Shown here: one piece after another, positions 3,047 to 36,828 of the stretch
Layout: every line of letters starts with the position of its first letter
Position numbering within the stretch: the stretch's first letter is position 1
Assembly (NCBI GenBank): GCA_964592275.1
Contig: CAZQDJ010000002.1
Location: 1-58,020 of the forward strand
Direction of reading: 5' to 3'
Origin: an uncultured Pseudomonadota bacterium
GTDB lineage: Bacteria > Babelota > Babeliae > Babelales > CAIQNR01
Length of the DNA stretch: 58,020 nt
Translations under genes and position numbers: made by a program
The notes under the pieces: generated by a model
What the model saw: only the letters and a program-made list of their open reading frames with translations
Databases searched by the model: none
Told to the model about the DNA's origin: nothing

Positions 3047-3150
3047 TATCCTGGATCCTTACACTCACTCACTTGTCCGCGCATTCGCACGAGACAATCT
3101 CGTATCGCTGAGGACGACGAGGATTTTTATTTATTCATTAATTTCTAGAC
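3047..3150 (+). repeat. dispersed element copy A: GC-rich core plus conserved AT-rich tail
   Basis: The GC-rich segment tatcctggatcc...gaggacgacgagga is followed by the tail atttttatttattcattaatttctagac (3123-3150). The same tail recurs at 48471-48505 and, reverse-complemented, at 9951-9988. Confidence 0.6.
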
Positions 3151-3214: not shown

Positions 3215-5662
3215 TTACGAGATAACAAAACTTACTAACCGGTTAGGTACAAAAATAACTTTTTGTATCGTCTTGCCCTCAAGCCATTTTTCAATAACGA
3301 CTTGTGCTTGTGGTTGAACCATATCCTGAGCGCTATCTCGAGCAACGATAATTTGACCACGAACCTTACCATTCACTTGAATAGCAATTTCAACAGTAGT
3401 TTGTACGGTAAAGGCTGGGTCATATGCAGGCCATTCACAGTCACGCAATTTTTTACCAAACTGGTTTTCAAGTAATTCGCTTGCCATATGAGGAGCAAGG
3501 GCTGAAAGAGCAACCACTACTTGTTGCGCAGAGGTTTTCCCCACTTTCATTTTTTGTTGAATAAGATCATTTAATAATTCCATAGCAGCCGAAAGCGCTG
3601 TGTTTGGTTTGAATTGATCAAGACGGTCTTGGAAAGCTTTTAAAAATTGCTGTACACGAACTTTTGATTCACGAGTTTCTTGAGAATCCGCCACCACAGC
3701 ATCACCACTAAAGTACGCAATAAAACGCTGAGTAAAACGACGCACTCCTTCAAGACCATTATCTTGCCACTCACAATCAAGTTCTGGTGGACCCATAAAA
3801 AGGATGTACATACGGAGCACATCTGACCCATATATTTTTACAATTTCATCAGGGTTAACTACGTTCCCTTTTGATTTTGACATTTTTTCAACCAAGCCAC
3901 TCTTTTCTGAATATTTATTTACCATTCCCTGGTTAAACAAACGAGTGAACGGTTCTTTGAAAGGGACAAAACCACCATCGTGCAATACTTTTACGTAAAA
4001 ACGGGAATAAAGTAAGTGTAAAATTGCATGCTCAATACCACCAACGTACAAATCAACAGGAAGCCAGTATTTTAAATCAGCTTGATCAAAGGCAGCGGTA
4101 TCTAATTGTGGGTTTGGATACCGTAAAAAATACCAACAAGACCCTGCCCATTGAGGCATTGTATTTGTTTCTCGTTTTGCCGGATTTTTACACTGAGGAC
4201 AGCTTGTATTCACCCAGTCGGTGATACCTGCAAGAGGTGATTCTCCGGTACCCGTTGGCTCATATTTTTCAACTTCCGGTAAAACGACCGGCAACTCAGA
4301 TTCTGGCACTGCAACAACACCGCAACTCTTACAATGGATCAAAGGAATTGGCTCACCCCAATAACGCTGACGAGAGAAAATCCAATCACGCAATTTGTAC
4401 GTCACCGTACGTTTTGCAAGACCCTGTTCTTCCAAATAATCTTTGAGCTGCTCACTAATATCACCACAGCGTTTACCTATAAATTGTTGAGGCCCTACCG
4501 ATAAAATCCCATTCTTCATATCGGTGTAACAAACTTCCTCTGCAAGCACTTTCTTTTTAAGTTCTTCGTCATGAGGAGGGTACATCCCAACCGTAAGGGG
4601 GATGTTATATTTTTTTGCAAAAGTAACATCACGCTCATCATGAGCGGAACATTTAACAATCCCCGTGCCATAATCAGCAATAGCAAAACTGGCTACCCAA
4701 ATTGGAAGCTCTTTACCATCAAGCGGATTTATAACATAACGGCCCGTAAAGATACCTTCGATTTCTTTTTCTCCCTCGTTACCAGCAGCAATGCGCTTCT
4801 TAATGACCTCATCGCAAAAGGCAAGGATTTCATTTTTATTGGAAATACCTTCAAGTAGTTGTGGCAACAATGCATGGTCAGGAGCGATTACGACATAAGT
4901 ATCTGCGTAGCATGTTTCAAAATGAGCAGAGAACGATTGAAGAACAAGATCCATATCTTTAACTGGAGATGAGAAGGTTAGGCCTTCACTTTTGCCGATC
5001 CAATTTTTTTGCATCAGCTTAACTTTTTCTGGCCACTCAAGCTCATCAAGATCATTTAATAATTGTTCTGCATAGGAAGTAATTTTAAGCACCCATTGTG
5101 GGATATCTTTTTTAGTAACTGTTGTTCCACAACGTTCGCATCCGCCATTGACCACCTCTTCATTGGCTAAACCGGTCTTACAAGAGGGGCACCAGTTAAT
5201 AGGCATAGAAGATTGGTATGCAAGACCACGTTTAAACATTTGTAAAAAGATCCACTGAGTCCATTTGTAGTACTCAGGATCGGTTGTATTAACTTCTTTG
5301 GTCCAATCATAGAGTGCGCCGACTTCTTCAAGTTGTTTTTTAAACGTAGCAACGTTAGTGTCAGTAGAAATGCGCGGGTGAATACCTTTTTTAAGAGCAT
5401 CATTTTCAGCAGGAAGACCAAAAGCATCCCAACCCATAGGATGAAGCACGTTGTATCCTTGCAGCCATTTTATACGAGCATAAACATCAGAAAGAACATA
5501 CCCTCTCCAGTGCCCTACGTGAAGACCAGAGCCGGAAGGATACGGGAACATGTCAAGGCAATAATATTTCTTACCTGTTCTACTATCTGTTGCGCGAGTA
5601 TCTGGATCTTGTGCCCAGCGCTTTTGCCATTTTTTTTCTACTTCGGCTACGTTGTACTGCAT
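3215..5662 (-). CDS. leuS: leucyl-tRNA synthetase
   Basis: 815 aa. Has the HIGH motif ([10 protein letters not shown]), KMSKS ([10 protein letters not shown]) and a CP1 editing region. Typical bacterial LeuS throughout. Confidence 0.97.
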
Positions 5663-8772: not shown

Positions 8773-9879
8773 ATGAATAGTAAGCAATTAAAAGAGGTTT
8801 CGTTGCGTATTGGAGTTGTTACAGCATTTTTTATTTTGACCTGCGTGCTTGATGCGCATGCACGTACTTTAAAAAAAGTAGAGTCTGTATACAATCAAAA
8901 AATTGCTGTTGACCAAAAAGCACTAGCTTTGATAGCAGAAGAAGTATCGCAATTTCTTTCTCATGTTCACAAAAGTATTTATGTGCAAGTAAGCGAAGGG
9001 AAAATCTTTAAAGGAATAGTGACCATTGATGACGTTAAAGATACGATTAATTTTCTTGCTAAGCACGCAAAAGAGCATCCTAATTGGCTTAAAAGTCATT
9101 GGTTTTACAATACTTATTTTGATTTCTATCGTTTATATTCTGATGGTGAGTTTTGTCCGCTAAAAATAGGTAAGCTTCCGCGCGGTTGGATAGGTGCCCC
9201 TGATAATCATCGCATTACTAAGTATCGTATTTGTAAAATGCATGGTTCTCGTACAAAAACAAAAAAATATTTCTTTCCTTTATATTCACGTCCTTCTGAT
9301 GAAGTAGGTAAAACAAACGAACGCATTCGGAATAATCCAGAAAAGTTTATACGGTTTATGTATAAAAGAAGTGAAATTTTAGAAGGAGCATTAGAACACA
9401 AAAAGGAAGTACAACCCCTTGCGTGGGTTACCCTTGAAGGGTATAAAGAGCTGGTAATGCAGGGAAGCGCAGTTATTGATTTTGAAGATCAAACGACGCC
9501 TCAAACTTTTCAGGTAGTAGTTGAAAATGATATGGCGCGAGAAGATAAATATTGGTTTGTTGCTCCTTATGAAAAAAGAAAGCCTTCTAAAAAATATCCG
9601 ATAAAGGTTGAACCTATTCCTGGGGTTTCTTTTGCAGGAAATATTTCCGATATTGGGTTTGGTAAAGTGCTCGTAATGATTGGAAAAAATCCATTGACGC
9701 TGGAAAAAGAGATGAGGGTCGGGGTGCTGACCGATACGGGAACAGCATTTCAAGATAATTTGTGCAAGTTTGATTTGTTTACTGGATATTTTGAAGAGCA
9801 TCAGCTTTTTGATGAACATTGTAAGCAATATCCACACACTGCGGAGATGTATATTCTTATTAAGAAACGTAAAAAATAA
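8773..9879 (+). CDS. MltA-like lytic murein transglycosylase (3D-domain protein)
   Basis: 368 aa with a signal peptide. MQGSAVI resembles the MltA LQGSG motif. The C-terminal LTDTGTAFQDNLCKFDLFTGYF resembles the 3D-domain DTGGAI...D.F.G motif. Confidence 0.6.
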   Translation: MNSKQLKEVSLRIGVVTAFFILTCVLDAHARTLKKVESVYNQKIAVDQKALALIAEEVSQFLSHVHKSIYVQVSEGKIFKGIVTIDDVKDTINFLAKHAKEHPNWLKSHWFYNTYFDFYRLYSDGEFCPLKIGKLPRGWIGAPDNHRITKYRICKMHGSRTKTKKYFFPLYSRPSDEVGKTNERIRNNPEKFIRFMYKRSEILEGALEHKKEVQPLAWVTLEGYKELVMQGSAVIDFEDQTTPQTFQVVVENDMAREDKYWFVAPYEKRKPSKKYPIKVEPIPGVSFAGNISDIGFGKVLVMIGKNPLTLEKEMRVGVLTDTGTAFQDNLCKFDLFTGYFEEHQLFDEHCKQYPHTAEMYILIKKRKK

Positions 9880-9950
9880 GTGTGTGCGCGACATTAAAGT
9901 GGTGTTTGTTTACCTCTTTAAATCTCTAACATTCGATTATTTTGTTAGAA

Positions 9951-10060
9951 TTTATCCGAATAAATTAATGAATAAATAAAAATTCATGTCATCCCCAGAG
10001 AACGGTAGTCGCAGTCAGTGCATTTATGCACTGCTAGACGGAGTGAACGCCTGGGGACCC
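9951..10060 (-). repeat. dispersed element copy B (inverted relative to copies A and C)
   Basis: The reverse complement of 9951-9988 matches the AT-rich tail of copies A and C. The 28 nt gtcatccccagagaacggtagtcgcagt (9989-10016) are identical to 48406-48433. There is an internal hairpin cagtgca/tgcactg, and the outer pairing is ccccag/ctgggg. Confidence 0.65.
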
Positions 10061-10127
10061 AGACGTAACAAGAAAAAATCCTAATTTTTAGATATGGTTT
10101 TTTTCTTTTCTTTGACACAAAACGTAG

Positions 10128-10526
10128 GTGTGCCCTCTGCGGGCAGCACCAAACAGGTTGCGCACCCAACCTGTTTGGAAACAAGGGTGCAAACCTGCGG
10201 CTTGACCGCTTACGGATGTGACCCGGAAGCGCAGCTTCTTTTTGCGCCTGCCGACTTCGCGGCACCCGCAGCTGACATCCTGATAAAGATTTTTTCTAAA
10301 AAATAAAAAGAGTAAAAAAAGTACCGTATCAGGATATCATCGAGCATACCGTCGGAGTCCGAAGGTCACGATGTAGCCTTGGCGAAGTCGAAGGACGACG
10401 GTGTATGCAGCAGGAAGCGAATGCTTCCGGATCATATCCGTCAAAAGCGGTCAAACCGCAGGTTTGTGTTTGGATTCCAAAGGGGTGAACAAGCACCCCG
10501 TTTGGTGCTGCGCGCAGAGCGCAATA
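10128..10526. repeat. GC-rich foldback: two diverged inverted copies of a unit of about 170-200 nt (candidate structured RNA or foldback element)
   Basis: Arm 1 is 10128-10286 and arm 2 is 10328-10526, around an AT-rich centre. The block 10192-10212 matches the reverse complement of 10446-10466 at 20 of 21 positions. Hairpins are conserved with compensatory changes. Two 60-nt lines I counted by hand are 58-60% G+C, against 28% in the line starting at 9901. Confidence 0.7.
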
Positions 10527-10577
10527 AATGACTATGATTCAGGAATAAATCATAAAATGAGAGGGAACGTTGTTACG

Positions 10578-11162
10578 TTAAACGTTGAAAGTAGTTTTCA
10601 CTTTCGCAATAAGCTCCTCTTTAGACATTGCCCCAACTTGTTGTTCATGAACTTTCCCTTTTTCAAAAAAGACGATCGTAGGTAAATATTGAATAGGTTC
10701 TTTTGCTAGTTCTACTTCTTGAGCTTTATTTGTTAGTTCTTGTTTGTCGCAATTCAAGCTGTAAAAAGTAACTTTTCCTTCAAATTCTTTAGCAACTTCT
10801 TCGTAATAACTTGCTAAGTGGTTACATGCGCCACACCAGTTTGTGTAAAACTTGATAACACAAGGTTCGGTACAATTTTTTATATAATCGACGCAGCAAG
10901 AGTCAGTTATCTCAAAAACAAGATCCTTATTTGTTACAGGTTTTTCACGCTTTTCTATTTTTGATTCTCTGTCGAGAGTAGTTTCTGCTTCTTGTGGTGC
11001 TATCGTGGCATGATCACAGCAGGTATCAATACCAGTTGCAGGTTGTTGCATACTGTCCATGATGGAAGGTTTATTTGATCGCATTACATAGAGTGACGCT
11101 AATGAGATGGCTGCAGCTACTACTCCGATAAGGAGCCAGGGAGTTTGTTTTTTGTGATTCAT
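10578..11162 (-). CDS. membrane-anchored thioredoxin-fold protein (WCGAC active site)
   Basis: 194 aa. Has an N-terminal TM anchor (PWLLIGVVAAAISLASLYV) and the thioredoxin motif FYTNWCGACNHLA, plus a cis-Pro region LPTIVFF. The linker is Cys-rich, with two CC doublets. Confidence 0.75.
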   Translation of the reverse strand: MNHKKQTPWLLIGVVAAAISLASLYVMRSNKPSIMDSMQQPATGIDTCCDHATIAPQEAETTLDRESKIEKREKPVTNKDLVFEITDSCCVDYIKNCTEPCVIKFYTNWCGACNHLASYYEEVAKEFEGKVTFYSLNCDKQELTNKAQEVELAKEPIQYLPTIVFFEKGKVHEQQVGAMSKEELIAKVKTTFNV

Positions 11163-28045: not shown

Positions 28046-29859
28046 GAGGCTCCCTTTTTTTGAAGAATTTTTATTTTCAAAATAAGTAACGATAGGGCTG
28101 CTGGTGTCATGCCAGGGATAATGCTTGCTTGAGCGATTGTTTCTGGCTTATGACGCAGCAGCTTTTGTCGCAATTCAATGGAAAGTCCATCAGTGATAAA
28201 ATAATCAAAATCAAGAGGAATGCGCATAGTCTGATACTTTTTAAGTTTTTCGACCTCAAGAGCTTCTCGTTCAATGTACGGAGCATATTTTATTGATGCT
28301 TGAATAGTTTGGCATGCACGAGGAGAGAGGTTTTTGCCTGTTAATGCGGCTACTACTTCTTGTGATTGTGTATTGTCAGAGAATGCATGAATAAGCTCGG
28401 TATGTGTTTTGGCAGTTCTTAATTCATGAAGCGTTTCTTCAATCAGTTGTTTTTCGGTAACAAAATCTTGATAAAACTGTTGTGGAATAAGGCCAATGCG
28501 ATAGGCGCGTTCAGTAAGTCGTAGGAACGCATTATCTTGACGTAATGTTAAGCGGTGTTCAGCGCGAGAAGTAAACATTCGATAGGGCTCATCAACGCTC
28601 AAAGTAGTTAAGTCATCAATCATAACGCCGATATATCCTTCGGTCCTATCCACTATAAATGGTGGCTCGCCGGCTGATGTTAACGAAGCATTAATACCAG
28701 CAATAATTCCTTGACCGGCTGCTTCTTCATAGCCTGTGGTTCCATTAATTTGGCCAGCAAGAAAAAGTCCTGGAATCGATTTTGCTTCAAGCGTCTGTTT
28801 TAATTGATGAGGAAGTACAAAATCGTATTCAATAGCATAGCCAGCTCGAACAATAACCGCATTTTCAAATCCTTTAATTGCTTGAATATAAGCAGTTTGT
28901 ACTTCGAGAGGTAAAGAAGTAGAAAGACCATTAGGATAGATCCAATCACTCGTAAGGCTTTCTGGTTCTACAAAAATTTGGTGAGATGTTTTTTCGGGAA
29001 AACGTGTAATTTTATCTTCGATAGAAGGGCAGTAGCGTGGGCCAATTCCTGAAATTTCTTTTCTCAAAATACGGGAAAGGTGAGCGTTTTCTTTAATAAC
29101 GTCATGTACTCGTTCATTGGTGTGCGTGATATAACAATCAAGTTTAGTAGTAGTGGTATGAGGATAAAATTCAAAGAGATAGTTAAGATTGTCCGCTTCT
29201 TGTTTTACCATTTTGGTAAAGTCGAGTGATTCACGTAAAAGACGGGGCGGGGTGCCTGTTTTTAAACGTCCAAGAGTTAGTCCAAGATCGCGTAAAGATT
29301 TGGTAAGGCTAATAACGGGTTTTTCGTCTTCTCTGCCTGACGGGTAATTTTCAAGGCCAATGTGTACCAATCCATTTAAAAAAGTACCGGTTGTTAAAAC
29401 TACGGTCGGTGTTGTTAAGATTGTACCATCAGCAAGGCGAACGCCTTGGATTGTTTTAGTACTATCGACCAAAAGTTCTTCTGCCATTGCTTCTATGATT
29501 GTAAGATTTTCAGTTTCTTTGAGTCGGCGTTGACTTTCTTGGCTGTAGGCGTTTTTGTCAATTTGTAGGCGAAGGCCATGGACGGCAGGACCTTTAGCGG
29601 TGTTGAGCATACGAACTTGGAGATAAGTCTTCGTGCAGAGCTCTGGCATTAAGCCACCAAGTGCTGCTATTTCAAAAACAATATGACCTTTTCCTATTCC
29701 TCCAATGGCAGGGTTGCAGGGCATATAACCAATCTTTTTTTCAGTAAGAGTAACTAAGGCAGTTTTTGAGCCTCTTCGAGCCGCTGCGTAGGCAGCTTCT
29801 ACCCCGGCATGTCCGGCGCCAATTATTACTACGTCAAAATTGTGCAGTTTTTTGTCCAT
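28036..29859 (-). CDS. mnmG: tRNA uridine-5-carboxymethylaminomethyl modification enzyme MnmG (GidA)
   Basis: 607 aa. The FAD motif is VIIGAGHAGVEAAYAAAR, and GidA-like sequence is conserved throughout (GPRYCPSIEDK, FLAGQINGTTGYEEAAGQG). Confidence 0.97.
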   Translation of the reverse strand: MDKKLHNFDVVIIGAGHAGVEAAYAAARRGSKTALVTLTEKKIGYMPCNPAIGGIGKGHIVFEIAALGGLMPELCTKTYLQVRMLNTAKGPAVHGLRLQIDKNAYSQESQRRLKETENLTIIEAMAEELLVDSTKTIQGVRLADGTILTTPTVVLTTGTFLNGLVHIGLENYPSGREDEKPVISLTKSLRDLGLTLGRLKTGTPPRLLRESLDFTKMVKQEADNLNYLFEFYPHTTTTKLDCYITHTNERVHDVIKENAHLSRILRKEISGIGPRYCPSIEDKITRFPEKTSHQIFVEPESLTSDWIYPNGLSTSLPLEVQTAYIQAIKGFENAVIVRAGYAIEYDFVLPHQLKQTLEAKSIPGLFLAGQINGTTGYEEAAGQGIIAGINASLTSAGEPPFIVDRTEGYIGVMIDDLTTLSVDEPYRMFTSRAEHRLTLRQDNAFLRLTERAYRIGLIPQQFYQDFVTEKQLIEETLHELRTAKTHTELIHAFSDNTQSQEVVAALTGKNLSPRACQTIQASIKYAPYIEREALEVEKLKKYQTMRIPLDFDYFITDGLSIELRQKLLRHKPETIAQASIIPGMTPAALSLLILKIKILQKKGASCH

Positions 29860-35331: not shown

Positions 35332-36828
35332 TTATTTTTCTATTTCTTGATGTTCAGTAGGTTCTTCTTCATCTTCTTGTGGAAATTCTTGAGATGATTC
35401 TTCGTGAAGTGATGGAGATTCTTCTTCGTTTTCAAAGTCAGTATTATTTTCGTCGTCGTGTGACGATTCTTTTAAAAAGCTGGCAAATGGTTCATCTGCA
35501 TGCGCAATGTCATCTCTCTCTCTTCTATCATTATCGGCAAAATCGGTTGTTGTTTTTGCAGGTTCTGAAACGGCCTCTGTGGAAACCTGAGTATTGATTT
35601 CTGCTAGCTTTTCTTTGTCATCGTGCGTTGGGAGTTGTTGATCATGTAATGTGTTTTTTGCTTCAATTGGATCTTCGTGAACAGTAGTGGCCAGTTCTTT
35701 TGTCATTAGTTTTTCAACTACAATAACGTGCTGTATGTGACTTTCTGATCCTGTTGAATAGGTAATAGTTGCTTCTCCAATTTTATGACCGGTAAGAATA
35801 AGACTCCATTGCGGGGTAGTTTTAGTTCCATCAAATTTTAAAGTGGCAGAAACAATTGCAGGGTCACTTGACTGGGCACTTCCTCCTGCAAATGAAGTTG
35901 CAAGGTGAGATTCATCGATCATGAGCGTAAGAGGTTCTTTGGTGATAATCATTTGTGGCGCTGATGTTTGTTTAGTTTCAGAATCATCTACTTTTTGTGT
36001 TGTAGTTATAAGTTTCCGTACTTCTTGGCTGAATGTTTTAAATTGGGTTTGTATGTTGGTTAGATATTTTTCTTCTAATTGATTTAATTTTTCAAAAACA
36101 AAATTTTGTGGTTCTGGATATTGTGTTCCGCTTATAAGTTCATGAGGGTTTCCTTGAATTTCAACATGATAGACTGGCTCAAAATGATCAGGTATTCCGT
36201 GTATTCCTTGTGCTTTAAATACCGTAAATGAACCGCTATGTACTGTTGCAGGAATAGTTATAGTATAATTTTTTTCTGTTGGGATTCCGTGAGCACCATT
36301 TTTTATAGTGCTTGAAAGGTAGGATTCATATTTTTTGTCTTGAATGAGGTAGCGATAAGTTTCAACGCCATGCGCAAGAGCAAGAGGATCGAGAGTTGCT
36401 GAATTTCCTGGAGTGATATGCAATGTTTTAATAGAGGCTGTTTGCTGCGCAGTTGAACGATGGTCTTTTGTTAAAAATGGATTATGTTCGGTTGGCGTTG
36501 CAGGTTCTGTTTTTGCCGACACTAGAGCATGATCTTCACTGTTTTTTGATTCGTGATGAGAAAAAGGATTTTCTGGTTCATCGGAAGAATCGGGAGTTGA
36601 AGCGATAGTGTGATGTTCTTCTGGAGCAAAAGGGTTAGCTGATTCTTCTTTGTTCGAAGTATTTTTTACTACTGGAGTTACAGGTTGACTTGCTTCAAGT
36701 GGATGATTTTGAGGGGCAAAAGGATTACTTTCACCTGCTTGCGCTGAAGTTATACAAAGGATTGCTAAAAGGGTTAATAAGCTTGATTTATATAATTTCA
36801 TTCGAACTCTCCTATAAAATAAGACCAC
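35332..36828 (-). CDS. secreted protein with four NPF motifs, a Big_2-like Ig domain and an acidic tail
   Basis: The likely start is the ATG at 36801 (MKLYKSSLLTLLAILCITSAQA), after AGGAGAG. NPF occurs at residues 35, 65, 87 and 116 of the ORF-track protein. SSDPAIVSATL...LTGHKIGEATITY resembles a bacterial Ig-like domain. Confidence 0.65.
   Translation of the reverse strand: MVLFYRRVRMKLYKSSLLTLLAILCITSAQAGESNPFAPQNHPLEASQPVTPVVKNTSNKEESANPFAPEEHHTIASTPDSSDEPENPFSHHESKNSEDHALVSAKTEPATPTEHNPFLTKDHRSTAQQTASIKTLHITPGNSATLDPLALAHGVETYRYLIQDKKYESYLSSTIKNGAHGIPTEKNYTITIPATVHSGSFTVFKAQGIHGIPDHFEPVYHVEIQGNPHELISGTQYPEPQNFVFEKLNQLEEKYLTNIQTQFKTFSQEVRKLITTTQKVDDSETKQTSAPQMIITKEPLTLMIDESHLATSFAGGSAQSSDPAIVSATLKFDGTKTTPQWSLILTGHKIGEATITYSTGSESHIQHVIVVEKLMTKELATTVHEDPIEAKNTLHDQQLPTHDDKEKLAEINTQVSTEAVSEPAKTTTDFADNDRRERDDIAHADEPFASFLKESSHDDENNTDFENEEESPSLHEESSQEFPQEDEEEPTEHQEIEK

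Follow-up and report, generated by a model that had tools for sequence, protein, structure and literature searches.

A candidate pair of convergent, structured small-RNA units in a single intergenic gap of a Babeliales-like subclade

The 58,020-nt stretch analyzed here (contig CAZQDJ010000002.1 of assembly GCA_964592275.1; hereafter the window) is a chromosomal stretch of an AT-rich Dependentiae/Babeliales-like bacterium, and it carries a GC-rich element in the 698-nt gap between two convergent genes, an MltA-like gene (+ strand, stop at 9879) and a thioredoxin-like gene (Trx; - strand, 10578-11162). All coordinates refer to the whole window on its forward strand, and L-numbers (L003, L010 and so on) denote the loci of relatives. 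The explanation that we favor, with about an even chance of being correct, is that the element is a subclade-specific pair of paralogous, convergently transcribed, structured small-RNA units. Unit W1 would be transcribed on the + strand, after MltA, and unit W2 on the - strand, after the thioredoxin gene, each from its own promoter, for which a conserved AT-rich 5' block is the candidate, and transcription would terminate at the central T-runs that flank an AT-rich spacer. The units would fold independently, and their products would be stable small RNAs, acting in trans as regulators or bound by proteins, rather than DNA sites. The original prediction, made from the letters of the window, had offered three explanations, namely a novel structured non-coding RNA (ncRNA) pair, a foldback miniature inverted-repeat transposable element (MITE) and the ends of a mobile element of the single-stranded DNA (ssDNA) type; the first of them is the best-fitting.

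The two arms are diverged copies of one unit in inverted orientation. A comparison of 10131-10230 with the reverse complement of 10423-10523 gives 78 identical positions out of 103 (76%, BLAST E-value = 4e-17), and a 21-mer at 10191-10211 (+) recurs at 10445-10465 (-) with 20 of 21 positions identical, where shuffled sequences are expected to give none. Additionally, GCAGCACCAAAC is present at both 10143-10154 (+) and 10500-10511 (-), and a 9-bp repeat (ATCCTGATA/TATCAGGAT) borders the arms on their inner side. The hairpins noticed originally are located at 10149-10159/10168-10178, 10477-10487/10494-10505, 10226-10238 and 10413-10428; every statement that the original prediction made about the sequence holds, its coordinates being off by one base at most. 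The differences between the arms preserve the hairpins inside each arm and not the pairing of one arm with the other. As the arms differ exactly at their own covarying hairpins, the conserved structure is the one within each arm.

W1 and W2 are ~170 and ~215 nt long, respectively, and share one layout toward the gap center (Table 1): a head that comprises hairpins P1 and P2 and a CA-rich linker into hairpin P3', a tail in which a long-range helix (PL) is closed around P4 and P5, and a T-run. P1 has 5-8 bp and occurs as UGCCC/GGGCA, UGCGC/GCGCA, UGCAC/GUGCG or UGCCU/AGGUA. P2 (11-13 bp) is found in six sequence versions (CCAAACAGGUUG, CGAAAGAGGUUG, UUAAAGAGGUUG, CCAAA[C]GGGGUG, CCAGA[U]GGGAUG and GCAAAG[C]GGGUGC), each matched by its own 3' strand, so that all are fully complementary, some with one bulged C or U. 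P3' (CAAACC-UGC-GGUUUG) overlaps an alternative hairpin P3 (GCGG-UUUGA-CCGC), while P4 (GGAAGC..GCUUCC) varies at its top. In type-2 tails P5 reads GCAUACRCCGUCG..CGACGGUAUGC, and different hairpins are found in other tails. The units end in ..CCUGAYA.. followed by the T-run. The CA-rich linker and the closed junction are candidate sites for the binding of a target or a protein.

That the hairpins are preserved by compensatory changes, first noticed between the two arms, could be extended with controls to 10 full or partial heads from six lineages, aligned with a covariance model. Paired cells amount to 88% over the 10 heads, against 78.7% in shuffles, and the covariation score reaches 0.279, compared to 0.105 +/- 0.018 when the columns are shuffled (0 of 500 reach 0.279); control registers slid by 1-3 columns score only 0.01-0.08. 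Eight pairs changed on both sides. PL covaries as well (GGAUGU/ACAUCC in W1 vs. GGAUAU/AUAUCC in W2), with partners 60-100 nt apart, and RNAalifold predicts the same PL/P4/P5 three-way junction for four type-2 tails. The P2 pairing of 84% in this alignment is an underestimate, because the bulged P2 of type-2 heads is shifted by one column in both the MAFFT and the model-based alignment; reading by hand revealed no broken P2 pair in any unit. Selection thus keeps the helices within the arms rather than their sequence.

Wobble pairs and T-runs bear on the strand. One pair of P1 is U-A in six units and U.G in four, and one pair of P5 is found three times as G.U and once as A-U. The helix substitutions that distinguish the window from L010 (n = 3) are U.G<->U-A, A-U<->G.U and C-G<->U.G, all of which would give A.C mismatches on the outward strand. 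A T-run on the inward strand follows every unit, including L006a with its non-palindromic center, and the truncated unit L061b, which has lost its tail, ends in GCGGUUUGACCGC plus U6 and represents the sole canonical hairpin with U6. The wobble changes mostly favor the inward strand, hence the two units converge, and transcription would probably run inward.

Concerning the 5' side, a 40-nt AT-rich block (TTTGCGCAAGAAnCTTTATTCTTaCAaTAnCTTAATTTTCT) is conserved directly upstream of seven type-2 heads of six lineages, on either side of the gap, and its position likewise favors inward transcription. It contains a -10-like TACAAT/TACACT/TCCAAT and an AAGAAT..ATTCTT palindrome and is a promoter-like candidate. 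The block pattern occurs once in each of six loci of five lineages (L003, L005, L006/L007, L010 and L061; L006/L007 are an identical sequence from two samples) and also in L063. Upstream of W1, the block shared with L010 begins at 10085, and the 5' extension carries the motif TTGAACAAGACGTA.GT; no sigma-70 match was found in 10085..10127. Upstream of W2, 10527..10577 holds one weak sigma-70-like site (GTAACA-16-TATGAT, 10576-10549). Separate transcription is supported by the conserved 5' block and by the terminator-like hairpin with T-run that relatives carry after MltA and before the unit. Located right after the MltA stop and conserved in the relatives (e.g., GCGAGCGGCACTAAACTCGC-TTTTTTT), this hairpin lies at 5110-5137 in L003, 5118-5146 in L005, 5122-5150 in L006, 3060-3086 in L010, 1147-1172 in L061 and 1474-1504 in L063, and its counterpart in the window (9880-9915) has decayed to gtgtgtgcgcgacattaaagtggtgtttgttt. 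Its stem covaries (GCGAG/CUCGC vs. GCGG/CCGC), and it is probably the MltA terminator. A sigma-54-like -24/-12 reading of the same hairpin (GG-N10-GC) is a loose likeness, and a terminator is the simpler explanation.

Table 1. Coordinates of the two units, their helices and their flanks in the window.
Feature	Coordinates	Strand	Evidence and remarks
AT-rich 5' extension of W1 (..TTGACACAAAACGTAGGT)	10085..10127	+	Also upstream of type-1 heads in L010, L006 and L063
Unit W1	10128..10298	+	Covariance model R1, 94.6 bits, E-value 5e-24; covariation; ~97% identical to L010 3125-3302
W1 P1	10131-10135/10141-10145	+	
W1 P2	10149-10160/10167-10178	+	
W1 P3'	10190-10195/10199-10204	+	Alternative P3 at 10197-10200/10206-10209
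W1 PL	10213-10218/10275-10280	+	Long-range; encloses P4 and P5
W1 P4	10226-10230/10234-10238	+	
W1 P5	10243-10253/10260-10270	+	
W1 T-run	10290-10295	+	
AT-rich spacer between both 3' T-runs	10296..10313	.	Units meet tail to tail
Unit W2	10312..10526	-	Covariance model R1, 98.3 bits, E-value 6e-25; covariation; RNAalifold junction
W2 P1	within 10508-10524	-	
W2 P2	10477-10487/10494-10505	-	One bulged C
W2 P3'	within 10452-10466	-	Alternative P3 within 10447-10459
W2 PL	10434-10439/10332-10337	-	Long-range; encloses P4 and P5
W2 P4	10413-10428	-	
W2 P5	10344-10354/10396-10408	-	41-nt insert in P5
W2 T-run	10314-10320	-	A7 on the + strand
Upstream region of W2	10527..10577	-	Diverged counterpart of the conserved block TTTGCGCAAGAAnCTTTATTCTTaCAaTAnCTTAATTTTCT (alignment)

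The loci of relatives were taken from contigs carrying homologs of the MltA-like protein and represent nine other lineages. Homologous units are present in the MltA/Trx gap of the closer L003/L004, L005 and L061 (MltA DNA identity of 80-82%), of the further L006/L007 and L010 (76%) and of L063 (MltA protein 73% identical). Empty sites, with the two genes 16 nt apart or overlapping, were identified in L062, L008/L009 and L011/L012 (MltA DNA identity of 73, 69, and 67%, respectively). From this distribution, the element originated, or was retained, in a single Babeliales-like subclade, to which it is restricted, and it always occupies one locus. The unit pair of the window recurs in L010. In L003 and L006 there are also two convergent units, in other head/tail combinations and with unrelated tails on the two arms, and in L006 the arms are separated by ~150 nt of other sequence; that gap also holds two truncated mini-units, and between its arms lies a copy of a dispersed hairpin repeat unrelated to the units. 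In L061 only one unit is present, next to Trx, and it stops right after P3 with U6, while the contigs of L005 and L063 stop inside a unit. In L008, one of the empty sites, a hairpin (AGGGGTG-TAGCG-TCACCCCT, at 5100-5150) lies in the last MltA codons, nested in AAAGAGGG..CCCCTCTTTT and 16 nt from the convergent Trx stop, and is probably a bidirectional terminator. It has a weak likeness to the type-2 P2 (9.9 bits), on which one may speculate that P2 descended from a bidirectional terminator of this kind.

Comparison of the filled gaps also revealed rearrangements. The tail of arm 2 of the window, together with the spacer, aligns in reverse with the left unit of L003, while the head of arm 2 aligns with the right unit of L003 without reversal and lies on the MltA side in L005. 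Judging from these orientations, inversions between inverted copies swapped tails between heads and flipped whole blocks, and the alignments thereby reveal a reshuffling of heads and tails between relatives. The block 10122-10523 is ~97% identical in L010, with ~7 substitutions, one remodeled P4 hairpin and a spacer that is preserved bar one indel, compared to 76% for MltA DNA and 84% for H+-PPase DNA in the flanks; in the closer relatives L003, L005, and L061 the units have diverged further from those of the window than in L010. The block was probably exchanged laterally between lineages, by recombination in the conserved heads, and the later substitutions between the window and L010 are few and all structure-neutral. 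Beside Trx, L010 has a truncated head, like the head of L006b, which is consistent with a remnant left by replacement of an earlier unit. As L063 has the same fusion of truncated head and 5' block on the other side of the gap, it may instead be an inherited arrangement. Mini-units with TTGAACAAGACGTA.GT, a P1-like hairpin and the start of P2 are located at 5184-5259 in L006, 3570-3610 (-) in L010 and 1530-1575 in L063; those of L010 and L063 join the type-2 5' block at the same point on opposite gap sides, which suggests an inherited composite or a nested insertion. Finally, short contigs of six assemblies end in or beside the element (seven contigs, those of L001, L002, L003, L004, L005, L010 and L063), and those of L003 and L010 stop within 2 nt of the same point at the Trx 3' end (..TTAAACGTTGAA). 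Contig breaks are expected where co-occurring lineages share the element but not its flanks, and the ends are consistent with assembly-graph branching between such lineages, or with poor coverage of GC-rich hairpins.

The element stands out in base composition. Against a mean G+C of 37.6% in the window (standard deviation 5.1%, in 120-nt windows), arm 1 has 59.7% and arm 2 53.8%, around an AT-rich center (10287-10327) of 19.5%. The figures given originally for single lines agree with the re-measured ones (28.3% for 9901-9960, 58.3% for 10141-10200, and 60.0% for 10201-10260). Apart from a borderline 120-nt stretch (29699-29822), the element is the only part of the 58 kb above ~52% G+C. Klein, Misulovin and Eddy are said to have described, in 2002, such a G+C island in an AT-rich genome as the classic signature of a structured RNA gene. 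The element is non-coding, in agreement with the first impression of a gap without a credible gene: open reading frames (ORFs) in the gap reach 94 aa and none is credible, no Pfam family was matched by any of seven ORFs taken from this gap and that of L006, and the gap ORFs followed by eye are not preserved in relatives. Specifically, interruptions or frameshifts in L003 and L010 affect both a 35-aa ORF in W2 and a 70-aa ORF over W1.

The original prediction matched the element to no known RNA, and the searches agree with it. Rfam 15 gave no match at gathering thresholds in the whole window, including 6S, SRP, RNase P, riboswitches, ribozymes, group I/II introns and HEARO/omega RNAs, and ARAGORN found no tRNA or tmRNA gene there. 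At E <= 10 on 9700-10800, the best Rfam scores in the element are 11-15.5 bits against thresholds of 44-54; the matches to chrB-a, RsmZ, and U4 are far below threshold and were rejected. The whole 58-kb window likewise shows no rRNA or other Rfam match. With filters off, the head model finds the two units only in the 58 kb (98 and 95 bits, the next at <= 18.6 bits), and in ~75 kb of relatives' DNA it finds gap-located units only. The inverted heads could serve as terminal inverted repeats; the filled gaps hold several kinds of modules rather than a single insertion, with all copies at one locus. No transposase, reverse transcriptase, integrase or Cas domain was found in the window, and no Y1 transposase/RAYT-like domain among the 40 window ORFs covered by the domain scan; other large ORFs, except two at the window's end, were covered by precomputed Pfam hits. 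No target-site duplication is shared by the flanks of 10128 and 10526 (caaaacgtag/aataaatgac), nor is there one in L010. Both mobile-element explanations of the original prediction lose ground here: the foldback MITE has no second copy in the window or in the ~75 kb of relatives, no target-site duplication and a single intergenic gap, and for the ends of an ssDNA-type element the enzyme domains named above are missing from the window.

Plasmid and phage blastn searches gave no match. The pattern AAACCTGCGGYTTGACCGC gave 33 matches in GTDB genome contigs; all but one are 19-27 nt long and are chance matches in GC-rich taxa, and the exception, a 42-nt match at 81% identity in a Planctomycetota contig (L038), was also taken for chance. 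The pattern CCGACGGTATGCTCN{1,6}ATATCC gave six chance matches in JGI metagenome contigs, and four pattern scans of IMG/VR viral contigs gave nothing real. Since exact patterns miss diverged copies, these scans show only that close copies are rare in those collections. Within this scope (58 kb plus ~75 kb for copies, the window for mobility domains), the results speak against membership in a family of the REPIN or MITE type. Another, distinct hairpin repeat of dispersed occurrence, with the core GTCATCCCCAGAGAACG...CGTTCTCTGGGGATGAC, is located at 9985-10066 (just left of W1, the adjacency having been noted originally), 48405-48475 and ~3101-3144 in the window and at 5578-5625 in L006. It is found at gene 3' ends, has a 17-bp stem in the 48405-48475 copy, and looks like a small MITE/REP-like or terminator-bearing repeat whose sequence is unrelated to the units.

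Several observations weigh against a pair of RNA genes. The element is dispensable, as three related lineages lack any gap, and it shows a turnover like that of selfish repeats (truncated copies, mosaics and apparent lateral exchange). The covariation sample is limited to six lineages and 10 full or partial heads, and template switching in quasi-palindromes can keep or repair local hairpins at the DNA level. The opposite strand folds as well or better in six of eight units; folding energy is therefore indecisive on the strand, and wobble-pair asymmetry and T-runs were used instead. P3' of W1, L010a, and L006b has an A.C mismatch that is a G.U pair on the other strand. Concerning the signals, the T-runs of the window units have no canonical terminator stem directly before them, the conserved 5' block is absent from the window at <= 3 mismatches, being diverged upstream of W2, and no promoter passes a sigma-70 consensus scan in the window or in L010.

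A first competing explanation, which we regard as unlikely, is a selfish cluster of GC-rich palindromic modules (REP/BIME, BOX or mitochondrial-GC-cluster-like) that persists and spreads by recombination or by an unknown mobilizing enzyme; its structure would play a part in ssDNA, if it mattered at all. It would account for the variable presence among relatives, the truncated mini-copies in L006, L010, and L063, the mosaic heads and tails with a block inverted between L003, L005 and the window, and the contrast between the shared block and the flanks in L010, the units of closer relatives being more diverged; many contigs also end inside the element, and a different dispersed hairpin repeat adjoins it. 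However, all copies lie in one MltA/Trx gap, the filters-off search and the genome, metagenome and viral scans yielded no further real copy, and neither a transposase, RAYT or integrase domain in the window nor a target-site duplication was found. A covarying long-range helix, a three-way junction, strand-specific wobbles and a 5' block are also unexpected for DNA palindromes. Like REP/BIME and the RAYT-mobilized doublets known as REPINs, the element is GC-rich, palindromic, variably present and placed between convergent genes, where those are often found, and like inverted REP doublets it can fold as a long hairpin. REP arms, however, are 20-40 nt long and near-identical, with tens to hundreds of dispersed copies, whereas the units here are 170-215 nt long, 76% identical, branched and bound to one locus, and no RAYT-like gene was seen. 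With modular intergenic repeats that are transcribed into structured RNA (pneumococcal BOX, Neisseria Correia elements, enterobacterial ERIC, Rickettsia palindromic elements and yeast mitochondrial GC clusters) it shares modularity, mosaicism, truncated derivatives and stable hairpins, and with GC clusters also the GC-rich islands in an AT-rich genome. Families of the BOX/Correia/ERIC type are dispersed, multi-copy and sequence-conserved, while the present element is locus-bound, has covarying helices and gave no DNA match in the plasmids, phages and contig collections scanned.

Slightly less likely still is that the arms are elaborate 3'-untranslated-region (3'-UTR), termination or insulator structures of both convergent genes, shielding the mRNAs from 3' exonucleases and stopping polymerases that enter the opposite gene. 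Each unit is co-oriented with its upstream gene and has a T-run at its end, the single unit of L061 ends in a hairpin plus U6 ~150 nt past the thioredoxin stop, and the empty site of L008 has one GGGGUG..CACCCC hairpin, weakly P2-like (9.9 bits), at the gene junction. Nevertheless, in relatives a terminator-like hairpin with a T-run already follows MltA ahead of the unit, the conserved promoter-like block separates the unit from the thioredoxin stop, a covarying multi-branch structure of 170-215 nt far exceeds the needs of termination, and relatives manage with 0-16 nt between the genes.

It is distinctly doubtful that the locus is a recombinational cassette, i.e., a new class of structured RNA, confined to one lineage of intracellular Dependentiae and maintained as a convergent inverted pair, whose tails are repeatedly swapped between heads by recombination of the inverted copies and whose block is exchanged between co-infecting lineages, with the effect of diversifying a functional RNA (e.g., in host interaction or defense) instead of being a passive repeat.

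Very improbable is a function of the whole ~400-nt foldback with its arms paired to each other, either as a long hairpin RNA (RNase III substrate) or as a foldback MITE. The 416-nt region does fold as one long hairpin, with energies of -199 kcal/mol (+ strand, z = -11.5) and -201 kcal/mol (- strand, z = -14.3), and the inner repeat ATCCTGATA/TATCAGGAT borders the arms. Yet the arms are only 76% identical, with differences that keep the intra-arm hairpins, and covariation is found in intra-arm helices only; besides, the element is not multi-copy and has no target-site duplication. As relatives have unrelated tails (L003 and L006), arms ~150 nt apart with another repeat between them (L006) or one arm (L061), the -200 kcal/mol foldback, after which the original prediction had named the region, is a by-product of two homologous units in inverted orientation.

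Further candidates were rejected on reading the sequence. A hammerhead-like core was considered (CUGAUA and GAAAC do occur, but neither their order nor their context fits), as were a CsrB-like GGA decoy (the GGA motifs are part of stems and lack conservation), group II domain 5 and DnaA boxes. For an integron attC, the flanks of P2 (CACCAAAC ... GTTTGGA) mismatch the R''/R' boxes (RYYYAAC ... GTTRRRY), and no integrase was found in the window. A riboswitch or cis-regulatory leader is at odds with both flanking genes pointing into the gap, the units being downstream of both, and a type I toxin-antitoxin with the lack of a Pfam match and of a conserved small ORF across the window, L003 and L010.

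The other genes of the window are housekeeping ones, encoding LeuRS, H+-PPase, MltA, thioredoxin, RNR, PurA, RpoD and DnaG, as well as Lgt, MnmG, TGT, MurB, PheT, LspA and a PBP. The sole named homolog of the MltA-like protein is from 'Candidatus Babeliales'. About 17 larger ORFs of the window have no Pfam family (e.g., 945-2018, 35332-36828, 38989-42605 and 50600-52015).

Among known systems, the favored pair of small-RNA units comes close to sibling small RNAs (sRNAs), such as Qrr1-5, PrrF1/2, OmrA/B and 6S-1/6S-2, which have their own promoter and a Rho-independent 3' end. Like these, the units are ~100-200 nt long, intergenic, duplicated side by side with compensatory changes, U-rich at the 3' end and clade-restricted. 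Unlike them, the copies are convergent and not tandem, and they have no sequence or covariance-model likeness to any Rfam family; each unit also has at least five helices, including a closed three-way junction, and is thus more elaborate than the usual base-pairing sRNA. The element further resembles hok/sok-type loci in being an intergenic, variably present, putative structured RNA of a few hundred nt with long-range pairing and duplication, which is frequent there, but it lacks their conserved small ORF. It should thus be seen as a candidate for a new ncRNA family and not as a new kind of system.

The Dependentiae (TM6) parasitize protists and are either uncultured or dependent on their hosts, and we know of no lineage-specific ncRNA described for them; a full-text literature search for Dependentiae non-coding RNA also found nothing relevant. 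Should the element turn out to be no more than a selfish cluster of palindromes, its value as a marker would remain, as would its role as a known source of broken assemblies among these metagenome-assembled genomes. As a candidate small-RNA pair, it has clear limits, support from covariation, an assigned strand and architecture, and a known set of lineages that carry or lack it, which makes it directly testable by RNA-seq in amoeba co-cultures or metatranscriptomes. Under the same reading, the locus would show how inverted paralogous RNA genes shuffle their modules by inversion and how a block can be exchanged between lineages whose proteins are ~75-85% identical.

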